A stretch of 63,980 nt of DNA, counting the filler, from an uncultured bacterium (GTDB lineage: Bacteria; CAYJOG01), in the NCBI GenBank assembly GCA_964371695.1. It is 5 parts of 5 records of this genome, joined end to end, with 100 filler letters (N's around TTAATTAATTAA, not from the genome) between each part and the next. Parts side by side here need not be neighbours in the genome. Positions count along the whole stretch, not along the records: positions 41,905 to 55,500 come from CAYJOG010000028.1; 4 more parts are not named here. One strand, given 5' to 3'. Below the pieces are notes generated by a model. It saw nothing but the letters and a program-made list of their open reading frames with translations. It did no database searches and was not told the DNA's origin. Below, piece by piece: positions 1 to 55,787 of this stretch. Each line of letters starts with the position of its first letter. Within the stretch, counting starts at the first letter, position 1. Both the position numbers and the translations under genes were made by a program.

Positions 1-45
1 GCCCAGGTTTGGGCGATGTTTTGAGCATGTCGCGGCGGCGAACTG

Positions 46-315
46 TTAACCACGGGGCGTGAGCACCGATGGATACAGGGAAATGGCGGCGAGGACGACC
101 CTGTCCGCCTGTCGGATGGTGGGCTTGGCCTTTTGGCGTTGGTAAGCAGCCAACTGCTGGCGCAGGGCCAGGTTTTCCAGAACGAGATTGTTGCGGGAGG
201 TCAGCGCCGCGCCGAGGTTGCCCAGGAACTCGGTGACCTGGTCCACGGTGTCCACGATCTGCTCCACGGTTTTGGCGGCATCCACGAGGAAGTCGGAAAA
301 GGTCTTCGAGAACAT
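46..315 (-). pseudogene. N-terminal remnant of an rve/integrase-core (DDE) transposase
   Basis: Translation contains LVLENLALRQQLAAYQRQKAKPTIRQADRVVLAAIS, which resembles the N-terminus of a widespread rve-domain transposase family. The frame stops at 46 before any catalytic domain. A related remnant lies at 50714-51130. Confidence 0.65.
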
Positions 316-361
316 GAAAGCGATCCTACCCAAAAACGCAGAAAACCCGCGTGGCTATTGA

Positions 362-380
362 TCGGATGGATTTTTCGGTA
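362..380 (-). repeat. Transposon-end-like motif TACCGAAAAATCCATCCGA
   Basis: Exact 19-bp match (reverse strand) to 50623-50641 and 55117-55135. It sits just upstream of the transposase remnant. Confidence 0.75.
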
Positions 381-43752: not shown

Positions 43753-44928
43753 ATGGACATGCCGCAAGCCAGAACCGTATTACACCTTCGTGTTCCCCAA
43801 TTTGCCTGCGCCGTGGCACAGGCCAGCGACAGCCGCCTACAGGGCCGCCCGTTCGCCATCGTCAGCGCCGCTCACCCCAGGGGGTTGGTGCTGGAAACCT
43901 CCCATCCCGCCCGGATGATGGGGGTGCATGGGGGCATGACGGTGGGGGAGTTGCGGCGTTGGCCGGATGTGTGGGTGTTGCCGCCAGATCAGGACGCCAT
44001 GCGGTTCGCCCAATCGGCGCTGGTGAAGCTGGGGGGGCGGTATTCGCCGTTGGTGGAGGACGTGACGCTGGGCAGTATGGCGCTGGACCTCACCGGCACC
44101 ACCCGGCTTTGGGGGCCACCGCAGGACGCCGCCCAACTGGTGGCGCGGGCGGTGCAGGGGGAGACGGGGTTTTTGTGTCTGGCGGGGGTGGCGGGGGGCA
44201 AGTTCGCCAGCAACGCCGCCAGCCGGGTGGCGGTGCCCCGCGAACCCCTGCTGGTGCCCCAAGGGGGGGAGCAGGCGTTTCTGGCTCCCCTGCTGGTGCG
44301 GTTGCTGCCGGGTGTGGGGCAGGTGATGGGGCAGCAGTTGACGGGGTTGGGGGTGGAGCGGGTGGCGCAGTATCAGGCCCTGCCCCGCGACGTGGTGCAG
44401 TTGTGTTTTGGTGCGTCGGGCATCCGTCTGTTGGAACGCGCTTTGGGTCACGACAACGACCCGGTGAGGTCCGCAGACGCGCCCGCTGGTGTGGTGCAGG
44501 AAAGCCACGCCCCAAACCCGGACACCAACAGCGATGAGGCTTTGCGGGGGTGCGTGGCGCTGATTTGTGAGCGGCTGGCGCTGCGGTTGATGTTGCTCTC
44601 GCGGGTGGCGGGGAGCATGACGCTGGGGGTGGTCTACGCCGATGGACAAAGCGCCCAGCGGCAAAAACGCCTGCCAATCCCCGCCGCCCATGAAGCCCTG
44701 TTGTATCCCCAGGCGGTGGGGTTGCTGGAGGGGGCGGTGAAACGGCGGGTGCGGGTGAGGCGGCTCACGGTGACGCTGGAGCGACTGGGCCAGGACTATT
44801 GGCAGGAGTCGTTGTTTCCCCACACGCAGGACCGCCACCATCAATTGGGAGACGCCCTGCAACGGTTAAGACGCCGGTTTGGGGATCAATCGGTGCGCTT
44901 GGGGGCAGCGTGGGCGGCGGAGCAGTAA
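43753..44928 (+). CDS. imuB: Y-family polymerase-like protein, predicted catalytically inactive (ImuB-like)
   Basis: IMS fold motifs LQGRPFAIV, GVHGGMT, YSPLVE, LPGVG. Catalytic acidic residues are replaced (HLRVPQF, VTLGSMALD). Has a QESLF clamp-binding-like motif and lies directly upstream of dnaE2. Confidence 0.82.
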   Translation: MDMPQARTVLHLRVPQFACAVAQASDSRLQGRPFAIVSAAHPRGLVLETSHPARMMGVHGGMTVGELRRWPDVWVLPPDQDAMRFAQSALVKLGGRYSPLVEDVTLGSMALDLTGTTRLWGPPQDAAQLVARAVQGETGFLCLAGVAGGKFASNAASRVAVPREPLLVPQGGEQAFLAPLLVRLLPGVGQVMGQQLTGLGVERVAQYQALPRDVVQLCFGASGIRLLERALGHDNDPVRSADAPAGVVQESHAPNPDTNSDEALRGCVALICERLALRLMLLSRVAGSMTLGVVYADGQSAQRQKRLPIPAAHEALLYPQAVGLLEGAVKRRVRVRRLTVTLERLGQDYWQESLFPHTQDRHHQLGDALQRLRRRFGDQSVRLGAAWAAEQ

Positions 44929-44933
44929 GACCC

Positions 44934-47900
44934 ATGAACGCAGCGCTGGATTTGTTGTCGTGGTATTCGTTTGGCTGGGGGGTGCATCCGCCGGGGGAAC
45001 TGGTGCGCCAGGCGGCGGCGTTGGGATATGGGACGGTGGGGTTGATGGACACGGGAAACCTGTGTGGCCTGGGGCGTTTTCTGGAAGCTTGTGGTGAGGA
45101 GGGGGTGACGCCAGTGGTGGGGGCGCGTGTGGGGCTAGAGGACGGCACGCTTTACGCCGTCGTTGCGGATGATGCGGGGTATTCGGCGTTGTGTGGGTTG
45201 TTGAGCTGCCTGCACTTGCCGGATGAACCCTCGCCCACGGTGGCGGATTGGCTGGATACGCCACCGGGGTTTTTCATCCTCACCGACAGTCCATCACTGC
45301 TCAGCGCCTGCCGGGAGAGGGGCCGGGAGGTTTGGGCGGCGTGGCTGGGGCGTCCCACGCCGGTGCGCCGGTTGGCGGTGAGGCTGGGGGTGCCGCTGGT
45401 GCCGCTCACCGGCATGAACTACCTGAGTGCTCAGGACGAACCCTTTCACCGCCTGCTGCGGGCCATGTCGCTGCTCAAGGGCAAGGACAATGTGTTGGCG
45501 GGGGAGATGGCCCCGCCAAAAGCCACCCTGCCCTCGCCCCAGGCCCTGCGCGCCGGTCTGGGCGAGGATGCGCCGGGAGCCTGGCGCAATCTGGAGGGGT
45601 TGCTGGAGAGGGTGACGTATCGCGGTCCTGGGCGTGAGCCGGTGTTCCCCGTCTGGGTGGGAGGGGGAGAGGAGAAAGGCCTGTCGCCGGAGGTGGCGCT
45701 TTACCGGCGGGTGGAGGTGGGTGCGCGGTGGCGATATGGGGAGGTGGGGGGGGGGTGCGCCAGCGGCTGGACAAGGAACTGAGCCTCATCATCCGCAAGG
45801 GCTTTGCCTCTTACTTCCTCATCGTGCAGGACATTGTGCGAGGGGCGGCGAGGGTGTGTGGGCGGGGCAGCGGTGCGGCGAGTCTGGTGGCGTTTTGCCT
45901 GGGCATCACCAACGTGGACCCGGTGAAACACGGGTTGTGGTTTGAGCGGTTTTTGAACGAGGCCAGGGAAGACCCGCCGGATATTGACGTGGACTTTCCC
46001 TGGGATGAGCGCGACGGGGTGCTGGCGCGGGTGTTTGACACCTATGGCAGGGCGCACACCGCCATGATCGGCACCCACCTCACCATGCAGCCCAAGGCAG
46101 CGTTGCACGAGGTGGCGCGGGCGTTTGGCCTGCCGGAGACGGAGATCAACCGCGTGACGAAGCACTACGGGGCCACGGACTTCTGGAGAAAGGCCACGGA
46201 AGTGACGGCACCGGGCACGGTGGACCTGCCGGACCCCTGGCCTGAGATTCTGGTGGCGGCGAACCGGCTCTTGGGGATTCCCCGCCACATGGGGCTGCAC
46301 CCTGGGGGTGTGGTCATCACCCCCAGGCCGGTGCGGGCCCATGTGCCGGTGCAGCCCTCCAGAAAAGGGCCGCTGGTGATTCAGTGGGAGAAGGATTTCG
46401 CCGAGGAAGCGGGGTTGGTGAAGATTGATTTGCTGGGGAACAGGTCACTGGCGGTGGTGCGGGACGCACTGGGCATGTTGCGGGAGAGTGGGGAGGCGTT
46501 GCCCGATGAGGGAACCTGGCACCCGGAGGATGATTCAGCCACCCAGGCGCTCATGGCCAGCGGGCGCACGATGGGGGTGTTTTATGTGGAATCCCCAGCC
46601 ATGCGCCAGTTGCAGGTGAAGACGGGCAAGGGAGATTTTGAGCATCTGGTGATCCACAGCAGCATCATCCGCCCCGCCGCCATGCGGTGGATCAACGAGT
46701 ATGTGCTGCGGTTGCGAGGCAAGTCCTACACCCTCGGCCACCCGGCGCTGGAAAACCTGCTGAGCGAGAGTTACGGCATTTTGTGTTATCAGGAGGACGT
46801 GACCCGCGTGGCGATGGACATGGCGGGGTTTAGCCAGCGGGAGGCAGACAAGTTGCGCAAGGCCCTGGGCAAACCCGACGCCGAAAGGGTGGTGGGGAAG
46901 TTCAGGGAGCCGTTTGTGGCGGGGTGTGAAGCGAAGGGGGTGCCCCGCGAGGTGATTGAGGAGACGTGGTTGATGGTGGAGTCGTTCACGGGTTACAGCT
47001 TTTGCAAGCCCCACAGCGCCAGCTACGCCATGGTGAGCTTTCAGAGCGCGTGGCTCAAGGCCCGCCACCCGGCCCCGTTCATGGCGGCGGTGCTCAAGAA
47101 TGGCGGTGGTTATTACGGCCCTCTGGCTTATGTGAGCGAGTGTCGCCGTTTGGGGCTGCGGGTGTTGGGGCCGTGTGTGAATCACAGCCGGGAAAGCTGG
47201 TGGGGGGTGGGTCAAACGGTGCGGGTGGGGCTGGACGCCATCAAGGGGTTGTCCGCCAGGGCCATCGCCGCTTTGCTGTTAGAAAGGGAACGCAACGGCA
47301 CCTATGAAAACCTGCGGGATTTGCTGAACCGCACCCGTTTGGCGCAAGACGACCAGCAGGCCCTGACAGAGGCGGGGGCGCTGGACAATCTGAAACCGGA
47401 AACCGTCACCCGCGCCCATCTTCAGTGGGAGGCATTGGTGCATCGGCATCACCGCCAAGCCTGGGCACCCCGGCATAACGGACGGGCCATGCAGTTCGAG
47501 GGGCTGGCGCAGGCCAACCAACCTGATGATCTGTTGGCCCGTTTGCCGCCTTTGGAGTTGGAGAAGGTGAAAAGGAACAGTTGGTTGCAGTTTGGGCGGT
47601 TGGGGTTTTTGCCACAGGTGCATCCCCTCACCTGCTTCTATGGAAAGGCGCTGAAAGGGTTGGCGCGGGTGCCCGCCGTGGAGTTGGGGAAGAAGGTGGG
47701 GGAGGAAGTGACTCTGGCGGGCTGGCCCATTGCCATGAAGCCTGTCAGAACCATTCACGGCCAGTCCATGAGCTTTTTCTCGTTCGAGGACGAACACGAC
47801 ACTTTTGACGCGGTGTTCTTCCCCGATACCTACCGTCGTTACGCCGTCACCCTGCTGCGAGGGGTGCCCGTGGCGGTGCGGGGCACGATCCAGGATGATT

Positions 47901-47980
47901 TGGGAGCGGTGAGTTTGCATGTCAGCAGCCTCAGGCCGTTGCCGGTGGCGAAAAACGCCCAACGAACCAGCTATGATTAG
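44934..47980 (+). CDS. dnaE2: Error-prone DNA polymerase III alpha (DnaE2/ImuC), frameshifted at G10 tract 45746-45755
   Basis: PHP-like N-terminus (SWYSF…G…DTGNL) in one frame. GRGSGA, FERFL, PPDIDVDF, KIDLLG, YQED, YSFCKPHS and a C-terminal OB fold are in the -1 frame after the G run. Confidence 0.85.
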
Positions 47981-48034
47981 CAAGTCGTTTCGTAACTACT
48001 ATTGTTCCGTCCAGCAAAGGCCGACAAAAACTCA

Positions 48035-50674
48035 ATGATTGACGACTTCGACATTTTCAAACTGATCGACGAATTCGGCATTTCAGAAAAGCCCGCCAAA
48101 CTGCTACTTAGGGCGATCAATGAAATCATGACGCATGAATTGACGGCGGAAGGTTTTATTCATGTTAAAGACCGCACCTTTGTCAGGCCCATTGAAAACA
48201 AGTTTTTCCACATCATACATTTCTATCCAGTCAGGCATGAGGGGCGAATATTGTCTTGGGGATTGGGTCTTCCTTTCATGCCCGAAGTAAAGGACGAGAA
48301 AGTCAAATGGCTTCTGAAACCTGAAACCACGAAAATAACCATGGCACTGTCTGGAAAAATACCAAGCCAAGATATGATTTTTTTTGGTGACCCCGTGATA
48401 AAAGTTTCATTACTGGCCGGGGGTGACTCTATTCGTCTCCAGTTGGAATCACAGTGGAAAAATAATAAAAAAATTATCCTAGACAGCCTATCTCAGTTCT
48501 ATTCTTTTCAGGCGCTAATTCACCATATACAAGATTGTTACTTGAAATCAATCCTGATTTCCAGGGCTTATTTGGATGAGGCCATTGCCTATGCATGTCT
48601 CCTAGCCAGCATGGGAAAGCTGGAGGAGGCCGAGCTGGTTATAGAGGAATGGAGCAAGGAAAACAAGAAATCTGCTGGGCGGAAGGAGATCATCCGAAAC
48701 ATCCTGAAATTAGTTTTCGAAAAACTGGGTGTTTCTACATTGAAAGTCAAGGATTCGGCGCTTGCTGGGTGGACTCCGCCGATCAAACGCGCCCGGGACT
48801 TTGTACCCGAGTCCGTCGAAACTCAAATTAAAACCAAAGACTTGAGTGCAGTCAAACGCTTCTTGAAAGACGAAGCCCATCTTGGGCTGATTGATCGCGA
48901 TGGGAAAAGCCTCCTTTCCATCGCATGTGAGGCAGGGTTTTCAGAACTTGCTAAATTCCTGATTAAAAAAGGATTATCTGTCCACCACCAAGATGACCTG
49001 GGAAGAACACCGCTTCATTTCGCATTTTTATCGGACAATCTGGATATTGCATCCATGTTATTAAAAAACAGCGCAGACCCCGCAGTGAAGGACAAAGAAG
49101 GCATTAGCTGCATTGCCTGCTCCTTGCGCCAAAAGGATGGTAGCGGTCTCATTCTTCTTTTAAAATTCGGTTATCCACCCTCCGAAGATCATTTCAAAAT
49201 GGATGCTGGTGGCAATACAGCCCTTCACAGGTTGTCCGAAAAGGGGAGCGAGTTTCTCATTATTGGCCTAGTTTCGACAGGACACGACATCAATAAAAAA
49301 AACATAATGGGCCGAACGCCTCTGCACCTCGCCATCCTGTCTGAAAATTTCTCAAACGCCAAATTACTCGTCAGATTAGGGGCTAATCCTATTTTAGAAG
49401 ATCACTATCGCTCAACATCCTTAGACCTTCTTTTTCACCTCCAATGCAAGCAAGAAAAGCAATTGCTTGAGATGATTGACCTGTTAATGGGGTTCGGCGT
49501 TCCTATTGTTCACCCCTATCAAAAGGTCAATCCATTGTGTTGGCCCGCTGAATTCGGATTTTACCACGTAGTCAAAAAAATACTGGATCTTGGCGTTTCG
49601 CCCAATTACGTGCCGTCGGGTAATATTCAAGACCCAGCAGTTGCCAACGCGGTGCTCAATGGACATTTTGATATTGTCAAAATGTTGGTATATGGAGGAG
49701 CCGACCTCACCTTCAAAAAGCGAAATGGAGAGCCTTTGGTGAATCAAGCCCTGTCACATCCAGAGATACTGGCCTTTCTCATACAAAAAGGCGCCCCTGT
49801 GGATCAACTAAATTCCCGAGGTGAAACGAGTCTGGATGTTGCCATTGCGAGGCAATGCCGCGAGGCCATCCACCTACTGCAATCAGTGGGCGTGAATGAA
49901 ACGGAACATGAGACCCGCCTGACGGATTTTCCTCCCTTCGCCAAAGCTGTTTCTCTCTTTCTAGGCCGCCAGGCAAAAAAGGACACCGCTGGTTCCAAAA
50001 CTCGATTTGTCCTAAAGTTCAGAAAAAAGCCGCCCGTCAAAGACCTTACCGATCTCGAAAAATCACTTTCCGCCGTCAGAGACCGCGATTTGTGGTTCGC
50101 CGTTCCCGGCAACATGATGGAAACCCTGAGGACTAATGTTCTATTTTCGGAATGCGCCCCCTCGAAGCTTGGAGAAGGCCTCCAAAAAGTAAGAAATGGA
50201 AAAGGCCTTCTGGCCTTCTATTCCAATACAACGGATTGGACCTGTTTATTCGCTCCCTGCCTGTTTGAGCGTCCTGATGTCGCCGCCTCAATTCTGATGG
50301 ACTTAAGTGTCAGTGCCGAGGAGGCGCTGATGTTCGGGGCGCTAAACAAGGCAAATTGGAGGTTTTGGTTTCGTGTCAGGCACCAAGAAATCAAACGGAT
50401 GTTTGAATACCACGGCGAATCTGGACTCATCCGATTCCTTGGCCCCCACACCTCCGCCGAGGAAAAAATTCTTCCCTACTATTACGACCAAACAGAGGAG
50501 GAATGGCGTCCCTCTCTTGAGGACGTTGTCCAGATCGCTTCAGCTTGGAGCTTCAATCCTGCTTGGCTGGCCTTCCTGGAGAAGGATTGGGCGAAAGGAC
50601 AGGGCTACTTGATGGCTGTCCATACCGAAAAATCCATCCGAGGCAAAAATCAGAACCCGGAACCCCAAAAATGA
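48035..50674 (+). CDS. Ankyrin-repeat multidomain protein
   Basis: Multiple ANK motifs (GRTPLHFA, GNTALH, GRTPLHLA, GETSLDVA). Markedly more AT-rich than flanking genes. Confidence 0.85.
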   Translation: MIDDFDIFKLIDEFGISEKPAKLLLRAINEIMTHELTAEGFIHVKDRTFVRPIENKFFHIIHFYPVRHEGRILSWGLGLPFMPEVKDEKVKWLLKPETTKITMALSGKIPSQDMIFFGDPVIKVSLLAGGDSIRLQLESQWKNNKKIILDSLSQFYSFQALIHHIQDCYLKSILISRAYLDEAIAYACLLASMGKLEEAELVIEEWSKENKKSAGRKEIIRNILKLVFEKLGVSTLKVKDSALAGWTPPIKRARDFVPESVETQIKTKDLSAVKRFLKDEAHLGLIDRDGKSLLSIACEAGFSELAKFLIKKGLSVHHQDDLGRTPLHFAFLSDNLDIASMLLKNSADPAVKDKEGISCIACSLRQKDGSGLILLLKFGYPPSEDHFKMDAGGNTALHRLSEKGSEFLIIGLVSTGHDINKKNIMGRTPLHLAILSENFSNAKLLVRLGANPILEDHYRSTSLDLLFHLQCKQEKQLLEMIDLLMGFGVPIVHPYQKVNPLCWPAEFGFYHVVKKILDLGVSPNYVPSGNIQDPAVANAVLNGHFDIVKMLVYGGADLTFKKRNGEPLVNQALSHPEILAFLIQKGAPVDQLNSRGETSLDVAIARQCREAIHLLQSVGVNETEHETRLTDFPPFAKAVSLFLGRQAKKDTAGSKTRFVLKFRKKPPVKDLTDLEKSLSAVRDRDLWFAVPGNMMETLRTNVLFSECAPSKLGEGLQKVRNGKGLLAFYSNTTDWTCLFAPCLFERPDVAASILMDLSVSAEEALMFGALNKANWRFWFRVRHQEIKRMFEYHGESGLIRFLGPHTSAEEKILPYYYDQTEEEWRPSLEDVVQIASAWSFNPAWLAFLEKDWAKGQGYLMAVHTEKSIRGKNQNPEPQK

Positions 50675-50686
50675 AAGCCAAGCAGT
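50617..50686 (+). repeat. Transposon-end-like unit TGTCCATACCGAAAAATCCATCCG…CCCAAAAATGAAAGCCAA
   Basis: Homologous units at 54910, 54942, 55111 and 55228, and at 362-380 on the reverse strand. Confidence 0.75.
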
Positions 50687-50713
50687 GTTGTGCTTGTTGT
50701 GCTACTGAAGTGC

Positions 50714-51130
50714 TCAAAAAACATATTCAACCAAGGTTTGTTCGAGTCCGCCCAGTATCATTCCCAGGAGCCAAGCAGCGTGAAGCCGCGTGAAGGAGAA
50801 AACCGGAAAGCCAAAGCCAACCCAAGGGTATGGCTGCTTCTGGCCGATCCAGATTTCCTCGACGGCAGGCAGAGTTTGGTGAAGCTGTCGTATGGCTGGG
50901 TGGCTCAGCCGGGTATGGCGGCAAAGGTGTTCTTGGCGGCGATCGATGGGTCGGGAGGCATGCCTTTTGCTGCCCAACCTTTTCAATTTGTCTTCGAGCA
51001 TTTGAATCTGGGCACGAAGGGCGGCGTTCTCCAGGCGCAGGTCGGTAGAGGACTTGAGACTGGACTTGAGGACTGCGGCCAGTCCGGGCAAGCCGCAGAT
51101 CAGGTCCCCAAGGGTGTTGAAGGTCATCAT
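50714..51130 (-). pseudogene. Internally deleted rve transposase remnant
   Basis: DLRLENAALRAQIQML parallels the 46-315 remnant. GGGAGG RBS present; ILGGL near the end; no DDE core. Confidence 0.55.
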
Positions 51131-51611
51131 GAAACCTCCCAGGGTGCAGAAAAAACTTGTGTGACGATTTTACACGGATTGGTAGATACGCGGGTCCAAA
51201 AGCGACCAAGTTGTCCTCTGGAGCTGAACAAAATGGGTGGCCGGGCGCGTCAAAATGGTGGGTTGAGTGGCAGCCGCCCGGCAAGGGTGAATTTCAAAAA
51301 CCCCCTGCAAAACAGACTTGGATATATTTATTGTGGGGCTTGGCAGAGCACCCGAACGGCCAAAACCGGGGGGCCACCCCCGGATGTCCCGGCCAGACTC
51401 AGCCAGACCCAACGAAAAGCGGCGTAGTCGCTAAATGGCGAGGCCAAAATGACCTTTTTTCGCCCGCCAGTCTCAGAGACCGTTTTGTAACTATATTTGT
51501 TGCCTCCAGGCGAAAATAAATTGTTACCCTCCAAGCAATGTCGAAAAATGTCCAAATGGGTTTGAACATCTAACTCGTCTATGCTCCAAGGCAGTTTTCA
51601 CCGACTTTTCT

Positions 51612-52568
51612 TTGGCCAACTTTTTAATGGATGTAAAGTCACCTCCAGGGAATATCATGAAAATCGATATCCGTTTTGGAGACAGTAAAAAATATCGATG
51701 CCGTGGAAACAATAATGGTGGAAAGTGTTCAATCAAATTAGAGTCTACTCAAGAAGCCGGGGCAGGCCGGGCAAAAAAACTAGCGCGGTCTAGCCTGGGT
51801 GCGGTCACAAATATTACCCAACCAGGTGGGACAGTAGGGTTTATCCAAATTCATGACGGTGATACCCAAATTCTGAGTTCCATCCTTCAGGCGGGTAAAG
51901 TCATTAACAACTTCACAGTAGCCCGTCCAGGCAGTACTCTTAACTTGGCCAATGGTCTTCTCCTCCAATATGGAGACGATGCCTTTCAGTCCATCGTCAG
52001 CCGCACTGTCAATGGCCCCAATGAGAATTGCTTGGTCAGCATTCCTTCTGGGCAAGAAATCGGTCAAGTTGACCATATCATTCCAGCTTATCAAAAGGGT
52101 GTCAGTCTCTCTGCAGCCCCCAGGAGTTATCTGGAGGTGCGAATTGATCCAAATTGCCAAGCGGATTCTCTTACTTTCAATGTTGAGATACTCGCTCAAC
52201 GAAAAAGTGATGGCCGTTGGTTTTCTTTTAATGATACTCAGACCATTCCTGTTTCTTCCCGTGTGGGTATCACCTCCTGGCAGGTTACTGATCCTCTTTA
52301 CATTGCGGGCGCCACCCAAAGGTTTGTTTTAAATCTGGATGGCCCCTTGGGTAGTGATCTGGTTGAGATCACCATTTTTGAAGATGGTGCGAGCACCCCT
52401 TTGCATACATTTAACCAATCCCAGTTAGTTCCCATTGCCGGTTTGATTAACACCTATAAACTGGACCAAGTGTTCCAACTGCCCCCTGGCAATTACAAAG
52501 CTCATGTTGTGGTGGGGCAAACTACATCACCAGCCACCGCCGAAACAGCTTTTAAGGTGGTGTACTGA
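51612..52568 (+). CDS. Hypothetical beta-rich extracellular-type protein, probably 5'-truncated
   Basis: The frame is open back to 51453 with no canonical start before 51612 and no signal peptide. The stop overlaps the next ATG. Confidence 0.6.
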   Translation: MANFLMDVKSPPGNIMKIDIRFGDSKKYRCRGNNNGGKCSIKLESTQEAGAGRAKKLARSSLGAVTNITQPGGTVGFIQIHDGDTQILSSILQAGKVINNFTVARPGSTLNLANGLLLQYGDDAFQSIVSRTVNGPNENCLVSIPSGQEIGQVDHIIPAYQKGVSLSAAPRSYLEVRIDPNCQADSLTFNVEILAQRKSDGRWFSFNDTQTIPVSSRVGITSWQVTDPLYIAGATQRFVLNLDGPLGSDLVEITIFEDGASTPLHTFNQSQLVPIAGLINTYKLDQVFQLPPGNYKAHVVVGQTTSPATAETAFKVVY

Positions 52569-53713
52569 TGGTTGGCAGTGAATTTTTTCTTTCAAAGCTC
52601 TTTTGGGGTGTCGCTTTTTGGGCTTTGGCCACCTTTTGGTGGACTATTCCCGCTGCCAAAGCCGCCCCACTCTGGAGTGTTGAAATTGAGGCTGTCAGCA
52701 ACACCACAGCCAGCGAGCTTCAAGTGATTCCCTTTGAAAATGAAAACATCCTGAATCCTTTTTTGCTGCCCGTCCCAAGTCCCTCCCCATCGTTTCAGCC
52801 TGACCCGACAAGCCTTGTCTTCAAAGGTCAGCCAGATGCTACCGGGGTGGATAACCTGAATGCCCATGTCACTCTTTTGAGGATCGAAAGCACCGTAGGT
52901 GGCTCCCTGGCCCCTCAAGACACGATTACGGTGACGTTGAAGTGCACGGATAATGCCAATGTGGTTCATATTTCTTTGATGGAACTGAGCGGTGACCAAG
53001 AGCGGATTGGGTGCGAGATTGACCCGGTCACTCAACAGCCCAAAAGCATGCAGGTGAACCTTGGCGCCACCCTTGTGCCTGGCCAGGGGCATCTGCTACT
53101 CTATGTTTTAGAGAAGTCAGAGGTCAGATCGGGGGCTGTGGTGTATGTCGCAAAAAACGAGGTGGGCGGAGGCTATCAGGAAGAGTATTTTGGCCTCCTG
53201 TTTGATGGCGTTGATGTGAAAGATAGTTGGAGCTTTGGTGATTTTGAGGGGGTGCAGGCAGCCTTGAAAACCAACACCACACCAGAAACCACTTTTACCA
53301 CAGTCCCAATAAACCAGGAAACCGGTAATTTTCAATATTTTTCTACGAGTCTGATCAATCCCGATGAGTTTGAAGTGGGACGCATCGCCTTCGCCGTAAA
53401 CTCAAATCAGCAAAGAACAAAGAAGTACTGCTTTAGCGTCCTGCTTTCGCAGGTTGCGGGCTTTACCACCCACACGTTTGGTATAGGTGTTAACCCGGAT
53501 GCAACAGGAGATGGCAAGGTGGATCTTAAGGATTTGGGTTACATAAAGAAAGTTTTTGGCAAAGCTTTATCCGATATACTTGATGATCCAGAGTTGATTG
53601 ATAAGTTCCAGAATTCAGACTTCAATCTTGATGTCAAAGTGGACTTGAAAGACCTTGGGGTGTTAAAACAAAGATATAACAAGGATTTTGCGATCGGGGG
53701 TGAGTGTGAATAA
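52568..53713 (+). CDS. Secreted protein with C-terminal dockerin-like domain
   Basis: Signal peptide …IPAAKA-AP; paired Ca loops DATGDGKVDLKDL and DFNLDVKVDLKDL. Confidence 0.8.
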   Translation: MVGSEFFLSKLFWGVAFWALATFWWTIPAAKAAPLWSVEIEAVSNTTASELQVIPFENENILNPFLLPVPSPSPSFQPDPTSLVFKGQPDATGVDNLNAHVTLLRIESTVGGSLAPQDTITVTLKCTDNANVVHISLMELSGDQERIGCEIDPVTQQPKSMQVNLGATLVPGQGHLLLYVLEKSEVRSGAVVYVAKNEVGGGYQEEYFGLLFDGVDVKDSWSFGDFEGVQAALKTNTTPETTFTTVPINQETGNFQYFSTSLINPDEFEVGRIAFAVNSNQQRTKKYCFSVLLSQVAGFTTHTFGIGVNPDATGDGKVDLKDLGYIKKVFGKALSDILDDPELIDKFQNSDFNLDVKVDLKDLGVLKQRYNKDFAIGGECE

Positions 53714-54905
53714 TTTATCCACCAGTTATAACAAAAAGACTGTTTTTAAGACAGCTATTGTTTTTTTGGTTTATTTCTTCTTGATGCCCCACGCAATGTC
53801 TTACTCTCCTTCTGATGGCCGGGTTTGTTTTAGGTCGATCGAAGAAAAAAATACTTGTCCAAAAAGTGGATTTACTGAAATTCGGGTTGGCCATGAAAAG
53901 CCGTTTGAGATTAAAGTGGTGTTCGAGGCATCAGGACAAGAATATGGATTTTTTGGGATTACTTCTCACTTTCGCCTTCCCAGGGAATTCGGCGCAGGAA
54001 GATGTCGCCTTGCTAACCCCTCTAGTATAGACCTTTTTTCCTTCGATGGAGACTGGGATAGAGACAAGAAAATTGACTCCGACCTTGAAATCCCACAATA
54101 CAATAATAAAATTGTGGCGACCTTTTTTGACTTTAAACCAGCCAGGGAAAGCGGGATAATACTAATATGCCGAATGAATGGTGGATCGCAAGGTGCGCTT
54201 ATTGAGTGGTGCACCGAAGAATATGACGTGCTTAATAAAGACTGTAAATTGGGGGACCTTTTTGGGTATGCTCCTTCCATAGCTGGTTTGGACAAATTGG
54301 TAGATGATGAACAAAATGGGCATTCAGTTGTTTACGAAGCGACTTTTTTACCAGCGAAGATTATTGTTGATGATGAGCAAAAACAAAAAGATGTCGACTG
54401 TGACAGCACCTGCCTAAAAGTGACCGCAGCGCCAAGGAGTAATGAAGGGCAGGCAAGGACTGGCGCACTGACCATGCCCCTTGCCTACTCCATTGTCCAG
54501 GCGGAAACGGAACATCTAGGCTGTGTTCAAACTGCCCCGGGCAAGGACGGCGGCTCCCTTCTCATCACAGTGGATGAAAAACGGTGCTCCACGGATGAAA
54601 AAGTAAACCTGATTGTTAACGACGTGCCCCAGGGCTTCGCCCGCACCAGCGAAGACACCTTTGTTTGTCGGAGGAATGTATCGGTTCAATCCCTTCTGGC
54701 TGAAAAGGAAATTGTTTGCGAGTTGGGCCTCCCCGACAATTCTGGTGATGCCAATAAAGATGGAAAAATTGACATGAAAGACCTTGGCGCAATCAAAAAA
54801 GAGTTCAACCAAAAACCGGAAACGGCAGACTTTAACGCTGATGGCAAGGTTGACATGAAGGACCTTGGCATTCTTAAACAGTATTTTGGACTGTCTTTTC
54901 AATAA
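53706..54905 (+). CDS. Secreted protein with putative cohesin-like domain and C-terminal dockerin
   Basis: N-terminal hydrophobic signal, then a beta-sandwich-like region (FEIKVVFE…SGIILICRM). Dockerin GDANKDGKIDMKDL…ADFNADGKVDMKDL. The cohesin call is tentative. Confidence 0.75.
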   Translation: MNNLSTSYNKKTVFKTAIVFLVYFFLMPHAMSYSPSDGRVCFRSIEEKNTCPKSGFTEIRVGHEKPFEIKVVFEASGQEYGFFGITSHFRLPREFGAGRCRLANPSSIDLFSFDGDWDRDKKIDSDLEIPQYNNKIVATFFDFKPARESGIILICRMNGGSQGALIEWCTEEYDVLNKDCKLGDLFGYAPSIAGLDKLVDDEQNGHSVVYEATFLPAKIIVDDEQKQKDVDCDSTCLKVTAAPRSNEGQARTGALTMPLAYSIVQAETEHLGCVQTAPGKDGGSLLITVDEKRCSTDEKVNLIVNDVPQGFARTSEDTFVCRRNVSVQSLLAEKEIVCELGLPDNSGDANKDGKIDMKDLGAIKKEFNQKPETADFNADGKVDMKDLGILKQYFGLSFQ

Positions 54906-54909
54906 GAAA

Positions 54910-55310
54910 TGTCCATACCGAAAAATCGTAACTGTCCAACCTGTGGGTCCCGAAAAAGCGGTCGCTTAAATTAAATCAACCAATGAACTCAAAAATGGAG
55001 CAAAAACCGAAAGAACTAGTCCAAGGTAAGGAGTCCGCCAAAGTGGATTGGACCATTGTGGGGCCAAAAAATGGGATGATCCGATTTGAAACTGGCTATT
55101 TACTCACGGGTGTTGATACCGAAAAATCCATCCGAGCACCCAAACCGAAAGCCGCACCCGAAAAATGAACGCCAATCTGACTGAAAAAGTTGAAGCATGG
55201 GCTCCCCAATGGTTGGGAGGATCGTGGTGTCCCTACCGAAAAAGCCGTCGCTTAAATTCAAAGCCATCAAAAACCCCAAAAATGAACGCCAAGCAGCCTG
55301 AAAAAGTGGG
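54910..55310 (+). repeat. Tandem array of four transposon-end-like units
   Basis: TGTCCATACCGAAAAAT (54910), TGTGGGTCCCGAAAAAGCGGTCGCTTAAATT (54942), TGTTGATACCGAAAAATCCATCCG (55111), TGTCCCTACCGAAAAAGCCGTCGCTTAAATT (55228). Confidence 0.75.
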
Positions 55311-55500
55311 AGAACTGGAACCCAAAGGACGGGAAGCCTCGTGCTTTGCGGTTTCAGTCAGCGAGAATCAGTGCGAAAGGCGATCGTTACCCACGAAGTC
55401 CCCAATCGGTTTGAACCTCAAGGTGGATTTTGAAAGAAAGGAAGACCGACGCCGGAAATCAGGCAGCCCAGCGGAGTTCGTGGACCAAACCATTCATGTG

Positions 55501-55600: not shown

Positions 55601-55657
55601 GCGGGGACGCCTGTGGCTACTCGCGCCACCAGAACTGGTTTTTGCTTTTTGTCCTTA

Positions 55658-55684
55658 CTGGATTCCCGCCTTCGCGGGAATGAC
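55658..55684. repeat. ATTCCCGC-CTTC-GCGGGAAT palindromic repeat
   Basis: Perfect 8-bp stem; a related half-copy GTCATTCCCGTGAAGGCGG lies at ~30131. Confidence 0.6.
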
Positions 55685-55787
55685 GCCAACTTGTAGGGGG
55701 ACGCCAGTGCTACCATTGCCGAAAATGCCCTAAGCCCTGGCTGGGTAACAGGTTTTCCCCGCCACCTGCTACACTTGATCTTCCAGC

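Follow-up and report, generated by a model that had tools for sequence, protein, structure and literature searches.

The locus at the end of contig C28 is in all likelihood a nesting ground of insertion sequence (IS) ends that belong to one broad rve_3 DDE family common in Planctomycetota. The window (the whole stretch of DNA analyzed, 63,980 nucleotides with filler) consists of contigs from a 3.43-Mb MAG (672 contigs, roughly 5x) joined end to end, and C28 ends at position 55500. All junctions named at the locus were bridged by Logan contigs (four runs from a single study). At 48001 GC content dropped from 0.59 to 0.42, and from there up to the end of C28 it ranged from 0.39 to 0.55. Two motifs were followed, TGT-N5-CCGAAAAA (R) and CGTTT[CT]GTAACTA (L), and the features below were delimited.

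47984..48011, minus strand: solo L-type IS terminus of 28 nt, outer end (48011) facing the ankyrin block
48002..50674, plus strand: low-GC block 1, an 890-aa ankyrin-repeat ORF (Ank_2, E 2.3e-36)
50617..50686, plus strand: R-a, IS terminal repeat TGTCCATACCGAAAAATCCATCCGAG with a subterminal box ending ATGAAAGCCAAGCAG, element interior to the right
50712..51508, minus strand: mini-IS "IS-A", internally deleted and non-autonomous, about 797 bp (right boundary exact, left approximate)
50714..51130, minus strand: remnant transposase ORF with homology to P0001
51481..51508, minus strand: second L motif, the terminal repeat at the transposase-proximal end of IS-A
51612..54905, plus strand: low-GC block 2, three co-oriented ORFs (318, 381 and 405 aa)
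54910..54927, plus strand: R-b, R-type terminus broken off after its initial 18 nt (repeat D4)
54928..54941, minus strand: GTAACTGTCCAACC, a 14-nt repeat forming a solo, L-like end (third type)
54942..55010, plus strand: R-c, second-subtype R terminus (…CCCGAAAAAGCGGTCGCTTAAATT…)
55111..55227, plus strand: R-d, left 117 nt of an R-type end, up to its interruption by R-e (repeats D1, D3)
55228..55500, plus strand: R-e, R-type terminus, with IS interior continuing until C28 ends
362-380 within 46..380 on contig C25 (in the window), minus strand: 19-nt R core, 47 nt upstream of ATG 315

The R repeat at the locus and in other genomes

Scanning the window with TGTNNNNNCCGAAAAA returned five exact copies (50617, 54910, 54942, 55111 and 55228), all on the plus strand, which confirmed the positions and orientation given in the initial annotation. 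With one mismatch or fewer allowed, eight matches were obtained against a shuffle mean of 1.31, and 0 of 100 shuffles reached eight. Across the whole MAG, TGT.{5}CCGAAAAA matched 12 times; five of these matches were this locus, and the remaining seven had nothing further in common. If insertions were independent, the arrangement of all five copies on one strand would have a chance of 1 in 16. A box some 45-50 bp downstream had been described for most copies. It held for three of the five (50617, 55111 and 55228), where AAAAATGAA(A/C)GCCAA started exactly 50 nt past the TGT, but the copy at 54942 had the box in loose form only and the copy at 54910 was cut off after 18 nt. The pattern AAAAATGAA[ACG]GCCAA matched three times in the MAG, always at this locus. 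Similarity among several R units ended at about the same point, just past an ATG box, and this shared loss point is not easily explained by independent truncations.

Both gene-end coincidences in the initial annotation were reproduced. R-a supplied the last 18 codons (VHTEKSIRGKNQNPEPQK) and the stop of the ankyrin ORF, for which a homologue of residues 600-890 was searched and not found, and R-b began 4 nt past the TAA of the dockerin ORF at 53688..54905. A second copy of R-a was present in the reads with different flanks on both sides (loose ends at 50624 and 50685). The 18 nt of R-b repeated the start of R-a without a mismatch (direct repeat D4), so that the two bracket the mini-IS and block 2; elsewhere in the reads, 15 different letters separated these 18 nt from an R-e-like (second-subtype) end. 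R-c was 79% identical to C1:12987-13059 over 73 nt. R-d was supported by nhmmer (E 2.9e-19) and had further copies in the reads with differing flanks (loose ends at 55111, 55120, 55169 and 55175).

R-e matched the IRL and subterminal region of an element in the Planctomycetota genome G323, agreeing in register with its left end across the TIR and into the subterminal region. On the minus strand, 55462-55500 held 13 codons and a stop resembling the C-terminus of family transposases; this frame ended 234 nt from the terminus, and the comparable distance in G409, also Planctomycetota, was about 196 nt. Three diverged public "proteins" spanned the R-e stretch, and conservation turned high exactly from the minus-strand stop onward. 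From these 13 codons and the conservation pattern, R-e is most likely the start of a complete copy, with a predicted transposase gene on the minus strand past the contig end. Read depth over 55229-55500 was about single-copy, and this copy is therefore not highly repeated.

R units with unrelated flanks were located on C1 and C71 and in at least five further contexts in the reads, and a MITE of about 125 nt (C1:12989-13113) had an R end at each side. On C25, ATG 315 lay inside a TTG-started ORF (46..333, minus strand) that is a transposase N-terminal fragment and shares 39% identity (E 1e-9) with the N-terminus of the transposase intact in G409. The G409 element measured about 1.36 kb and was bounded by TGTCCTTACCGAAAACTCCGTC on one side and the inverted sequence on the other; between these ends lay a 339-aa ORF that scored 53 bits for rve_3 (cut-off 26.5). 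Intact elements likewise had the R repeat at both termini in G323 (L134 and L135, the inverted repeat of L135 spanning 42 nt at 90%), G046 (L108) and G124 (L112), and the repeat bounded a 1093-bp element on the Bradyrhizobium plasmid NZ_CP082165. Intact relatives were 1.1-1.4 kb long with one repeat per end. The 16-nt R core had 43 copies in G323 (reversed control, 0), co-oriented end stacks with a spacing of 50-330 nt also occurred in G323 and G409, and 30 of the 401 Planctomycetota genomes sampled contained P0001-like transposases (E ≤ 1e-30). Judged by sequence, an rve_3 DDE insertion-sequence family has R as its terminal inverted repeat, which agrees with the earlier view of these sites as DDE element ends. 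Absence of the motif from the termini of intact transposase elements had been named as a refutation of that view, and the elements in other genomes show the opposite.

A complete R-type element was not assembled in this MAG, in which the search for the rve family returned nothing. The initial annotation had also called for target-site duplications, and none was recognized at any end examined (this MAG, G323, G409 and the Bradyrhizobium plasmid). Counted against the preferred reading were the absence of an assembled R element and of a target duplication, the single-copy depth of R-e, the single strand, the shared loss point and the direct repeats of R-a and R-b.

The L motif, the mini-IS and the low-GC blocks

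The L pattern matched twice in the MAG, at 47986 and 51481 of the window, and a slightly different third copy was present on C6. These two positions had been taken as the left edges of both AT-rich blocks; the positions stood, but the motif is a mini-IS terminus and not a left border of cargo. The solo L end began 3 nt past the dnaE2 stop. Over about 31 nt it was in register with both the mini-IS right terminus and the copy on C6; no further similarity was found leftward of it.

The core-less transposase reported between the blocks was recovered as the ORF at 50714..51130 (minus strand). Its residues 2-64 were 86% identical to residues 1-63 of P0001, a 406-aa HTH_32 and rve_3 protein used as the reference, and the remainder was unrelated, so that IS-A keeps both ends and only 63 transposase codons. 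We read L as an IS terminus, of a related element, because its boundary was shared by three MAG copies (IS-A, C6 at 78-83% identity and a partial copy on C321, all with the same deletion), read depth was 2-3x that of the flanks, at least four different sequences followed 51508, and a full-length form occurred in the same samples, where a read contig branched at 50938 in the left part of IS-A into a full-length transposase (judged against P0001). These three copies and the C1 MITE bear out the proposed non-autonomous derivatives.

In block 2, ORFs 2 and 3 contained dockerin-type repeats (repeats D2 and D7; Dockerin_1 E 2.8e-10 for the third ORF). The outer termini of L and R both abutted AT-rich blocks as related ends in opposite orientation. 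Because both termini face the blocks, the blocks are placed outside the elements and between them.

Alternative explanations

Block 2, like a 2.3-kb low-GC island on C1, might be a non-autonomous cargo transposon or mobile insertion cassette with family-type ends, which an IS-A-like transposase would mobilize in trans; the mini-IS would have destroyed the left end of block 2. The 14-nt repeat had three exact and three one-mismatch copies in the MAG. Two copies flanked the C1 island (GC 0.44), which carried FG-GAP/dockerin ORFs between GGGTTGGATAGTTAC and its inverse (1 mismatch), the C1 left end resembled the IS-A terminus in its inner part, and the same 14-mer ended block 2 directly after the dockerin gene. 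We nevertheless consider it unlikely. An inverted partner of the repeat was found neither on C28 nor, even with 3 mismatches, in the window, the C1 inverted repeat stopped at 15 nt with a local alignment score (25) within shuffle reach (maximum 27 in 500), a target duplication was not found, and other copies of the 14-mer were the outer ends of small MITE-like repeats after ordinary genes.

According to the initial annotation, a single family was building an integron-like stack, with cargo added serially beside a co-oriented end site and mobilized in trans. Five co-oriented ends, the direct repeats (18 nt, identical) that start at 50617 and 54910 around the mini-IS and block 2, and the position of ends where genes stop and where GC falls at 48001 all fit such an element, and the 18 nt joined to a second-subtype end at another locus hint at end-targeted insertion. 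Repeated co-oriented sites between co-oriented genes also recall integron cassette arrays, which together with arrays of translocatable units are the known analogues of such a model, but the sites here are transposon termini. The idea was not upheld and is very improbable: L is separate, a mini-IS terminus that on C6 also lies between two ordinary large genes without an R unit nearby; the blocks lie outside the elements and have no common border structure apart from IS ends; an inverted partner end was not found; R units formed no hairpin on either strand (z −0.10 to 1.72); and C28 had no tyrosine recombinase or other integrase, the only tyrosine recombinase in the MAG being on C289.

It is still harder to regard the sites from 54910 to 55243 as multiple transposase-binding sites in one end of a large Tn7- or Mu-like transposon past the contig end. 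Four co-oriented sites, each beginning with TGT, did fall within 334 bp, and families whose termini are TGT/ACA and which have a further transposase-binding site inside are described (PMC10132070). R shares with such ends, of the IS1202 family and Tn7-type, the TGT terminus and a conserved box about 50 nt inside, the first part of which resembles the inner terminal repeat, and this inner box is a putative transposase-binding site. However, no unit shared a TGT terminus or a subterminal box with another, since each had both, single units were found alone with unrelated flanks, and intact relatives had one repeat per end over 1.1-1.4 kb; IS1202 transposases are 441-457 aa and target dif sites, whereas those here are 339-406 aa.

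Scarcely credible is a host regulatory or coding module that is not mobile (a shared promoter and leader with a start codon for small genes, or a conserved C-terminal peptide, …TEKSIR…): an ATG at a fixed distance is followed by M-N/K-A/S-K in most copies and the TEKSIR frame is open in several, but intact transposons from other phyla have this very sequence as their inverted terminal repeat, the frame is lost in C71, C1 and the second subtype, the downstream "ORF" is best read as an antisense shadow of a transposase 3′ end, and no protein family matched.

Related systems and the probable nesting of IS ends

Like members of the IS3/IS481 superfamily, which have a single DDE (rve) transposase and short inverted repeats beginning with TG or TGT, the intact elements were 1.1-1.4 kb long and multicopy, with one ORF of 339-406 aa (HTH and rve_3) and inverted terminal repeats starting with TGT, and contigs broke at them. 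IS481 ends begin with TGT, and both families transpose by copy-out and paste-in. The elements differed in that target duplications were not seen and in that the transposases scored below the NCBI cut-offs (G409, 102.1 against 160 for IS3 and 91 against 224 for IS481; P0001, 62.5 for IS3 and 67.1 for IS481), and therefore no IS family was assigned. IS-A, with both ends and 63 codons kept, one deletion in all MAG copies and more flanks in the reads, and the C1 element with an R end at each side resemble known mini-IS and MITEs, which are non-autonomous, internally deleted derivatives mobilized in trans, but many R units here (R-a, R-c and R-d) had only one recognizable end. IS30, IS911 and IS26 target their own ends and form arrays by insertion beside a resident copy. 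Similarly, ends of one orientation are stacked at spacings of 30-330 nt at this locus as well as in G323 and G409, except that only ends and stumps were present here, with full copies absent between cargo segments.

In the preferred reading, R would be the site of transposase binding and cutting, with TGT as the outermost triplet and, 50 nt inside, the box as a conserved subterminal stretch of that end. The five R copies would then be five element ends, every interior to the right, of which R-a would truncate the ankyrin gene, R-b would be an 18-nt stump, and R-c and R-d short end fragments. The 797-bp mini-IS, which has lost its catalytic core, would be copied in trans, the other L copy would be a stump after dnaE2, and the low-GC blocks would be DNA situated between insertions. 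The direct repeats of R-a and R-b would also be expected from site-specific or homologous integration. The claim of a hotspot was retained, since elements landed repeatedly at the locus, close to or inside each other's ends. We infer that new copies tend to land in or beside resident ends in the same orientation, and that recombination or deletion among the nested copies may collapse them into stacks of one end type. Because the motif is the terminal repeat of an ordinary IS family, broken copies of which have piled up beside the two low-GC blocks, the locus is interpreted as transposon debris rather than as a new gene-collecting system.

Setting and architecture of the locus

At the end of contig C28, next to low-GC genes, a common insertion-sequence family has left stacked ends, stumps and a mini-IS. 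Contigs in the window are joined by N-ttaattaattaa-N spacers; the C28 coordinate plus 41904 gives the window coordinate, and C28 ends at 55500, 273 nt past the last R site. The metagenome-assembled genome (MAG) comprises 672 contigs (3.43 Mb, GC 0.61, completeness 83%). Reads from four sediment runs of one study (~5x) were used as Logan contigs, which span all junctions of the locus. No close relative was found among the 40 "relatives" returned, all labelled "same domain". The nearest DnaE2 relatives were Planctomycetota MAGs at 57-60% amino-acid identity and are too distant for empty-site or synteny comparison.

Features of the locus in order along the window (R and L, repeated motifs; mini-IS, deleted insertion sequence)
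to 47980: dnaE2
47986: L stump, terminus facing right
48002..50674: ankyrin gene (block 1), cut by R-a (50617, +)
then: ~25 nt
~50712-51508 (-): mini-IS, L terminus facing right
51612..54905: ORFs of 318, 381 and 405 aa (block 2)
54910 (+): R-b, 18 nt
54928-54941: 14-mer GTAACTGTCCAACC, after the 18-nt stump R-b
54942 (+): R-c
55111 (+): R-d, 117 nt
55228 (+): R-e and IS interior
55500: contig end

At the left of the locus, dnaE2 is split over two overlapping frames, 44799..45782 (PHP-like N-terminal part) and 45728..47980 (750 aa, pol III alpha domains), through either a frameshift or an assembly error at ~5x coverage; imuB (43753..44928) lies upstream. GC falls from 0.59 to 0.42 at 48001. 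By a sliding-window filter (GC < 0.50, genome GC 0.61), 59 low-GC islands of at least 1 kb were called in the MAG (~102 kb in total, island means 0.43-0.56), several of them bearing dockerin or FG-GAP genes, so that low-GC blocks are a general feature and not peculiar to the C28 locus. Dockerin repeats are present in the 381- and 405-aa ORFs of block 2. Neither the small ORFs nor the ORFs of 318 and 381 aa had a match in Pfam or NCBIfam, and a homologue search with ankyrin protein residues 600-890 was empty.

The five copies of TGT-N5-CCGAAAAA (R-a to R-e) described in the initial annotation were recovered at 50617, 54910, 54942, 55111 and 55228, all on the plus strand. With at most one mismatch the motif gave 8 matches against a shuffle mean of 1.31, and 0 of 100 shuffles reached 8. 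The 890-aa ankyrin ORF takes its final 18 codons and its stop from R-a, and R-b starts 4 nt past the stop that closes the dockerin block's third ORF, in line with the first description. The downstream box said to follow most copies, AAAAATGAA(A/C)GCCAA, was located 50 nt from the TGT in three of the five and nowhere else in the MAG. Spacings are 32 nt from R-b to R-c, 169 nt from R-c to R-d and 117 nt from R-d to R-e.

Interiors lie to the right of every R and to the left of every L, which places both blocks outside the elements that border them. The proposal that the cargo blocks are bounded by their own ends was thus not borne out: termini of R and L abut the blocks, with no outward-pointing inverted pair. 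Inverted partner ends were found for none of the R, L or 14-mer ends; the inverse R copy is absent from the window, and a partner for the 14-mer was not found there.

Terminal repeats of an rve_3 insertion-sequence family

A DNA search of 401 Planctomycetota genomes returned hits in 11 (23-40 nt, E 4e-4 to 9e-3 per genome), a set which as a whole is at chance level. Two of these hits, in genome G323, adjoin genes for transposases of the P0001 type (P0001, a 406-aa HTH_32 + rve_3 protein) and lie just outside them, which led to complete elements. One G323 element (L134) has the left end TGTCCCTACCGAAAATTCCGTC… and the right end …GACGGCATTTTCGGTAACGACA with an rve-type transposase between. A ~1.36-kb element in G409 (L121) has the same ends and an intact 339-aa ORF (rve_3, 53 bits against a cut-off of 26.5). 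The ends of L121 and L134 were read by eye; the automatic repeat finder missed both. A second G323 copy (L135) carries a 42-nt inverted repeat at 90%, the elements in G046 (L108) and G124 (L112) have close variants of these ends, and a 1093-bp element on a Bradyrhizobium plasmid (L136) has TGTGTGTACCGAAAAC at both ends. PGAP labels the plasmid homologues only as "integrase core domain-containing protein".

The R motif therefore stands at the termini of intact transposase elements in G409, G323, G046, G124 and the Bradyrhizobium plasmid, as the initial annotation had anticipated. The R copies of the window are in register with these ends base for base, and in R-e the agreement with the G323 left end continues through the repeat into the subterminal region. 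G323 contains 43 occurrences of the 16-nt R core, and a reversed control gave 0. From the intact-element ends, the in-register fit and the G323 core count, the R motif is, as judged from sequence comparison, the terminal inverted repeat of an rve_3 DDE insertion-sequence family. P0001-type transposases were present in 30 of the 401 sampled Planctomycetota genomes (E ≤ 1e-30). A search with P0001 for related loci gave none in genome contigs or metagenome contigs.

The G409 transposase and P0001 fall below the NCBIfam cut-offs for IS3 and IS481 (G409 protein: IS3 102.1 vs 160, IS481 91 vs 224; P0001: IS481 67.1 vs 224, IS3 62.5 vs 160) and so are filed at superfamily level only, with no family assigned.

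The second motif (L) was confirmed at 47986 and 51481, and its proposed role as the left edge of cargo was not. The 51481 copy closes a ~797-bp repeat (window ~50712-51508) as its final 28 nt; C6 has a further copy of this repeat (78-83% identity) and C321 a partial one. The core-less transposase remnant reported between the blocks is indeed there, as ORF 50714..51130 (-), 86% identical to P0001 residues 1-63 and then unrelated. All three copies of the repeat share their boundaries and keep transposase codons 1-63 only, from which it follows that the mini-IS spread after deletion. This agrees with the known mini-IS/MITE class: retained termini on both sides, a lost transposase and one deletion common to copies at several sites were all found here. 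Reads cover it 2-3x as deeply as the flanks and show at least four different continuations past 51508, and one read contig at 50938 runs on with the codons after residue 63 of P0001, which places a full-length parent in the same samples. The C6 copy lies between two large ordinary genes without an R unit or a co-oriented block.

The 47986 copy is a solo stump of ~28-31 nt, the same kind of end, 3 nt past the dnaE2 stop. Taken from its outer side inwards, the L end holds …GTTACAAAACGGTC…, which is a form of the R core TACCGAAAA..C.GTC; L and R are thus related ends in opposite orientation. Inspection by eye of the mini-IS, the C1 MITE and the elements in G323, G409 and Bradyrhizobium, whose termini are uncertain by a few bases, showed no target-site duplication.

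Other copies and small repeats in the genome

Further R units with unrelated flanks occur on C1, C71 and C25. R-type ends stand on both sides of C1:12989-13113, which looks like a ~125-nt MITE. In the reads from the four runs, at least five more contexts contain an R unit and differ on one or both sides, loose ends fall at 50624, 50685, 54909, 55111, 55120, 55169 and 55175, and the 18-nt R-b stump is joined to a second-subtype end at another locus. An exact 19-mer scan of metagenome contigs gave 7 loci, none R-like outside the 19-mer, and these were taken as chance. Among the 40 "relatives" genomes no real match to the R array or mini-IS was found outside the MAG; the one outside hit, in G036, was 34 nt long and was likewise taken as chance.

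On C25 a 19-nt R core (window 362-380, -) lies 47 nt upstream of the ATG at 315, within ORF 46..333 (-), a transposase N-terminal fragment (39% identity, E 1e-9, to the G409 transposase N-terminus). The contig starts inside the IS (window 1-380) and this ORF stops after 95 aa, so either this copy too is broken or the contig has a chimeric end. A search for the rve family was empty across the MAG (0 matches), and tblastn with the G409 transposase found the C25 fragment alone.

After R-e, a minus-strand frame stops at 55462, 234 nt from the terminus (~196 nt in G409). The 13 codons ahead of this stop, which with it are all that lies before the contig end at 55500, resemble the family C-terminus. 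Three diverged database entries (P0002-P0004, public "proteins" of 143-232 aa) were matched when the plus-strand "ORF" behind R-e was used in a search without a profile. All cross an R unit or the ATG box, and high conservation begins exactly opposite the stop at 55462, a jump that would fit R-e as part of a complete element. On this short stretch they appear to be antisense shadows of the IS right end and the transposase 3' end, and the entries probably arose by translating through an IS end and the reverse strand of a transposase 3' end.

In the MAG the 14-mer was counted 3 times exactly and 3 times with one mismatch. One inverted pair encloses a 2.3-kb low-GC island on C1 that carries FG-GAP/dockerin ORFs, and other copies stand at the start of small MITE-like repeats behind ordinary genes. 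Since the C1 inverted repeat does not extend significantly beyond 15 nt (score 25 vs shuffle maximum 27), the island is only tentatively read as a cargo transposon.

A separate small dispersed repeat family has a central hairpin (…GTCATTCCCGCGAAAGCGGGAATCC…), with many members near low-GC islands and contig ends (window 55601-55720; C1:10190-10600, C44:11559-11646, C286:2949-3135, C445); some begin with the 14-mer GTAACTGTCCAAYC. Just upstream of the R copy on C71, a promoter-like site and a strong terminator hairpin (…CCTGACCGCCCGGTCAGG, then a T run) bracket ~200 nt without an obvious ORF (C71:3000-3290, L101), which may be a small RNA gene. Complete IS copies in G323 lie directly against solo ends and a ~135-nt MITE belonging to their own family at L135 (C80:1380-1650) and L126 (C76), with 6 nt separating one right end from a solo left end in inverted orientation.

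Mechanism, competing readings and meaning

The motifs are multicopy termini of a DDE element family, one member of which is a mini-IS that depends on transposase in trans. The elements work like insertion sequences of the IS3/IS481 superfamily. IS3/IS481-type elements move by copy-out and paste-in, and some insertion sequences target their own ends. Binding by the transposase would be at the terminal repeat and perhaps at the conserved box 50 nt further in, which begins with a stretch like the inner repeat, and cleavage would be at the TGT. New copies would land in or beside resident ends in one orientation, and recombination or deletion between nested, co-oriented copies could then leave a stack of one end kind before one complete copy. 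Co-oriented end stacks, 50-330 nt apart, also occur in G323 and G409, and nesting at ends seems to be a trait of the family.

Several observations sit poorly with the stacked-end reading. A complete R-type element was not assembled in the MAG, read depth beyond R-e is about single-copy, several R units finish at a similar position, an 18-nt direct repeat, identical in R-a and R-b, brackets the mini-IS and block 2, and all five copies share one strand. For these reasons other readings stay alive at low probability.

It is unlikely that the family prefers to insert, in one orientation, into or beside resident ends and, with trans-mobilised derivatives (the mini-IS, the MITE and the C1 island with its 15-nt inverted repeat), gathers and moves low-GC surface-protein genes (ankyrin, FG-GAP and dockerin cargo). 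If true, the locus would be an early, transposase-driven analogue of a cassette array. Block 2 as a cargo transposon is improbable too.

An end-targeted, cassette-like assembly, in keeping with the single strand of the copies, has a smaller chance still. The integron-like character first proposed was not upheld, as R units do not fold into hairpins, unlike the imperfect palindromes of cassette sites (z -0.10 to 1.72 in six folds, four R units + and two -). The MAG (83% complete, with the contig ending at 55500) has one tyrosine recombinase (PF00589), on C289, and none on C28. No read joint deleting an L/R-bounded block or unit was found in the Logan contigs of the four runs, which cannot show absence; two joints alone appeared, one contig leaving out 85 nt of the mini-IS and a second joint skipping 89 nt, with a 24-nt side.

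One large Tn7/Mu-like end is very improbable. The IS1202 family and Tn7 have a TGT end and a possible inner site, as here, and transposases larger than those here (PMC10132070). Least probable is a host regulatory or coding role of the repeat. An Rfam search of 47500-55500 at E ≤ 0.1 gave no match, the R units included. A diversity-generating retroelement repeat, an orphan module of a polymorphic toxin, a sigma-factor promoter and IS200/IS605-type ends were rejected for want of supporting features: reverse transcriptase, hairpins and a conserved frame are all lacking.

The stacked-end reading is mostly corrective: what looked like a cassette-collecting system is an ordinary insertion-sequence family seen through its terminal repeat, its broken copies crowded at a contig end. 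The pattern is real and its cause is ordinary. TGT(N5)CCGAAAA can be used as a marker for ends, MITEs and mini-IS of the rve_3 family in Planctomycetota-like MAGs, and the R repeat helps explain why contigs of such MAGs break at these places. Short ORFs and protein tails at these sites, such as the last 18 codons of the ankyrin gene and probably P0002-P0004, are by-products of insertion.
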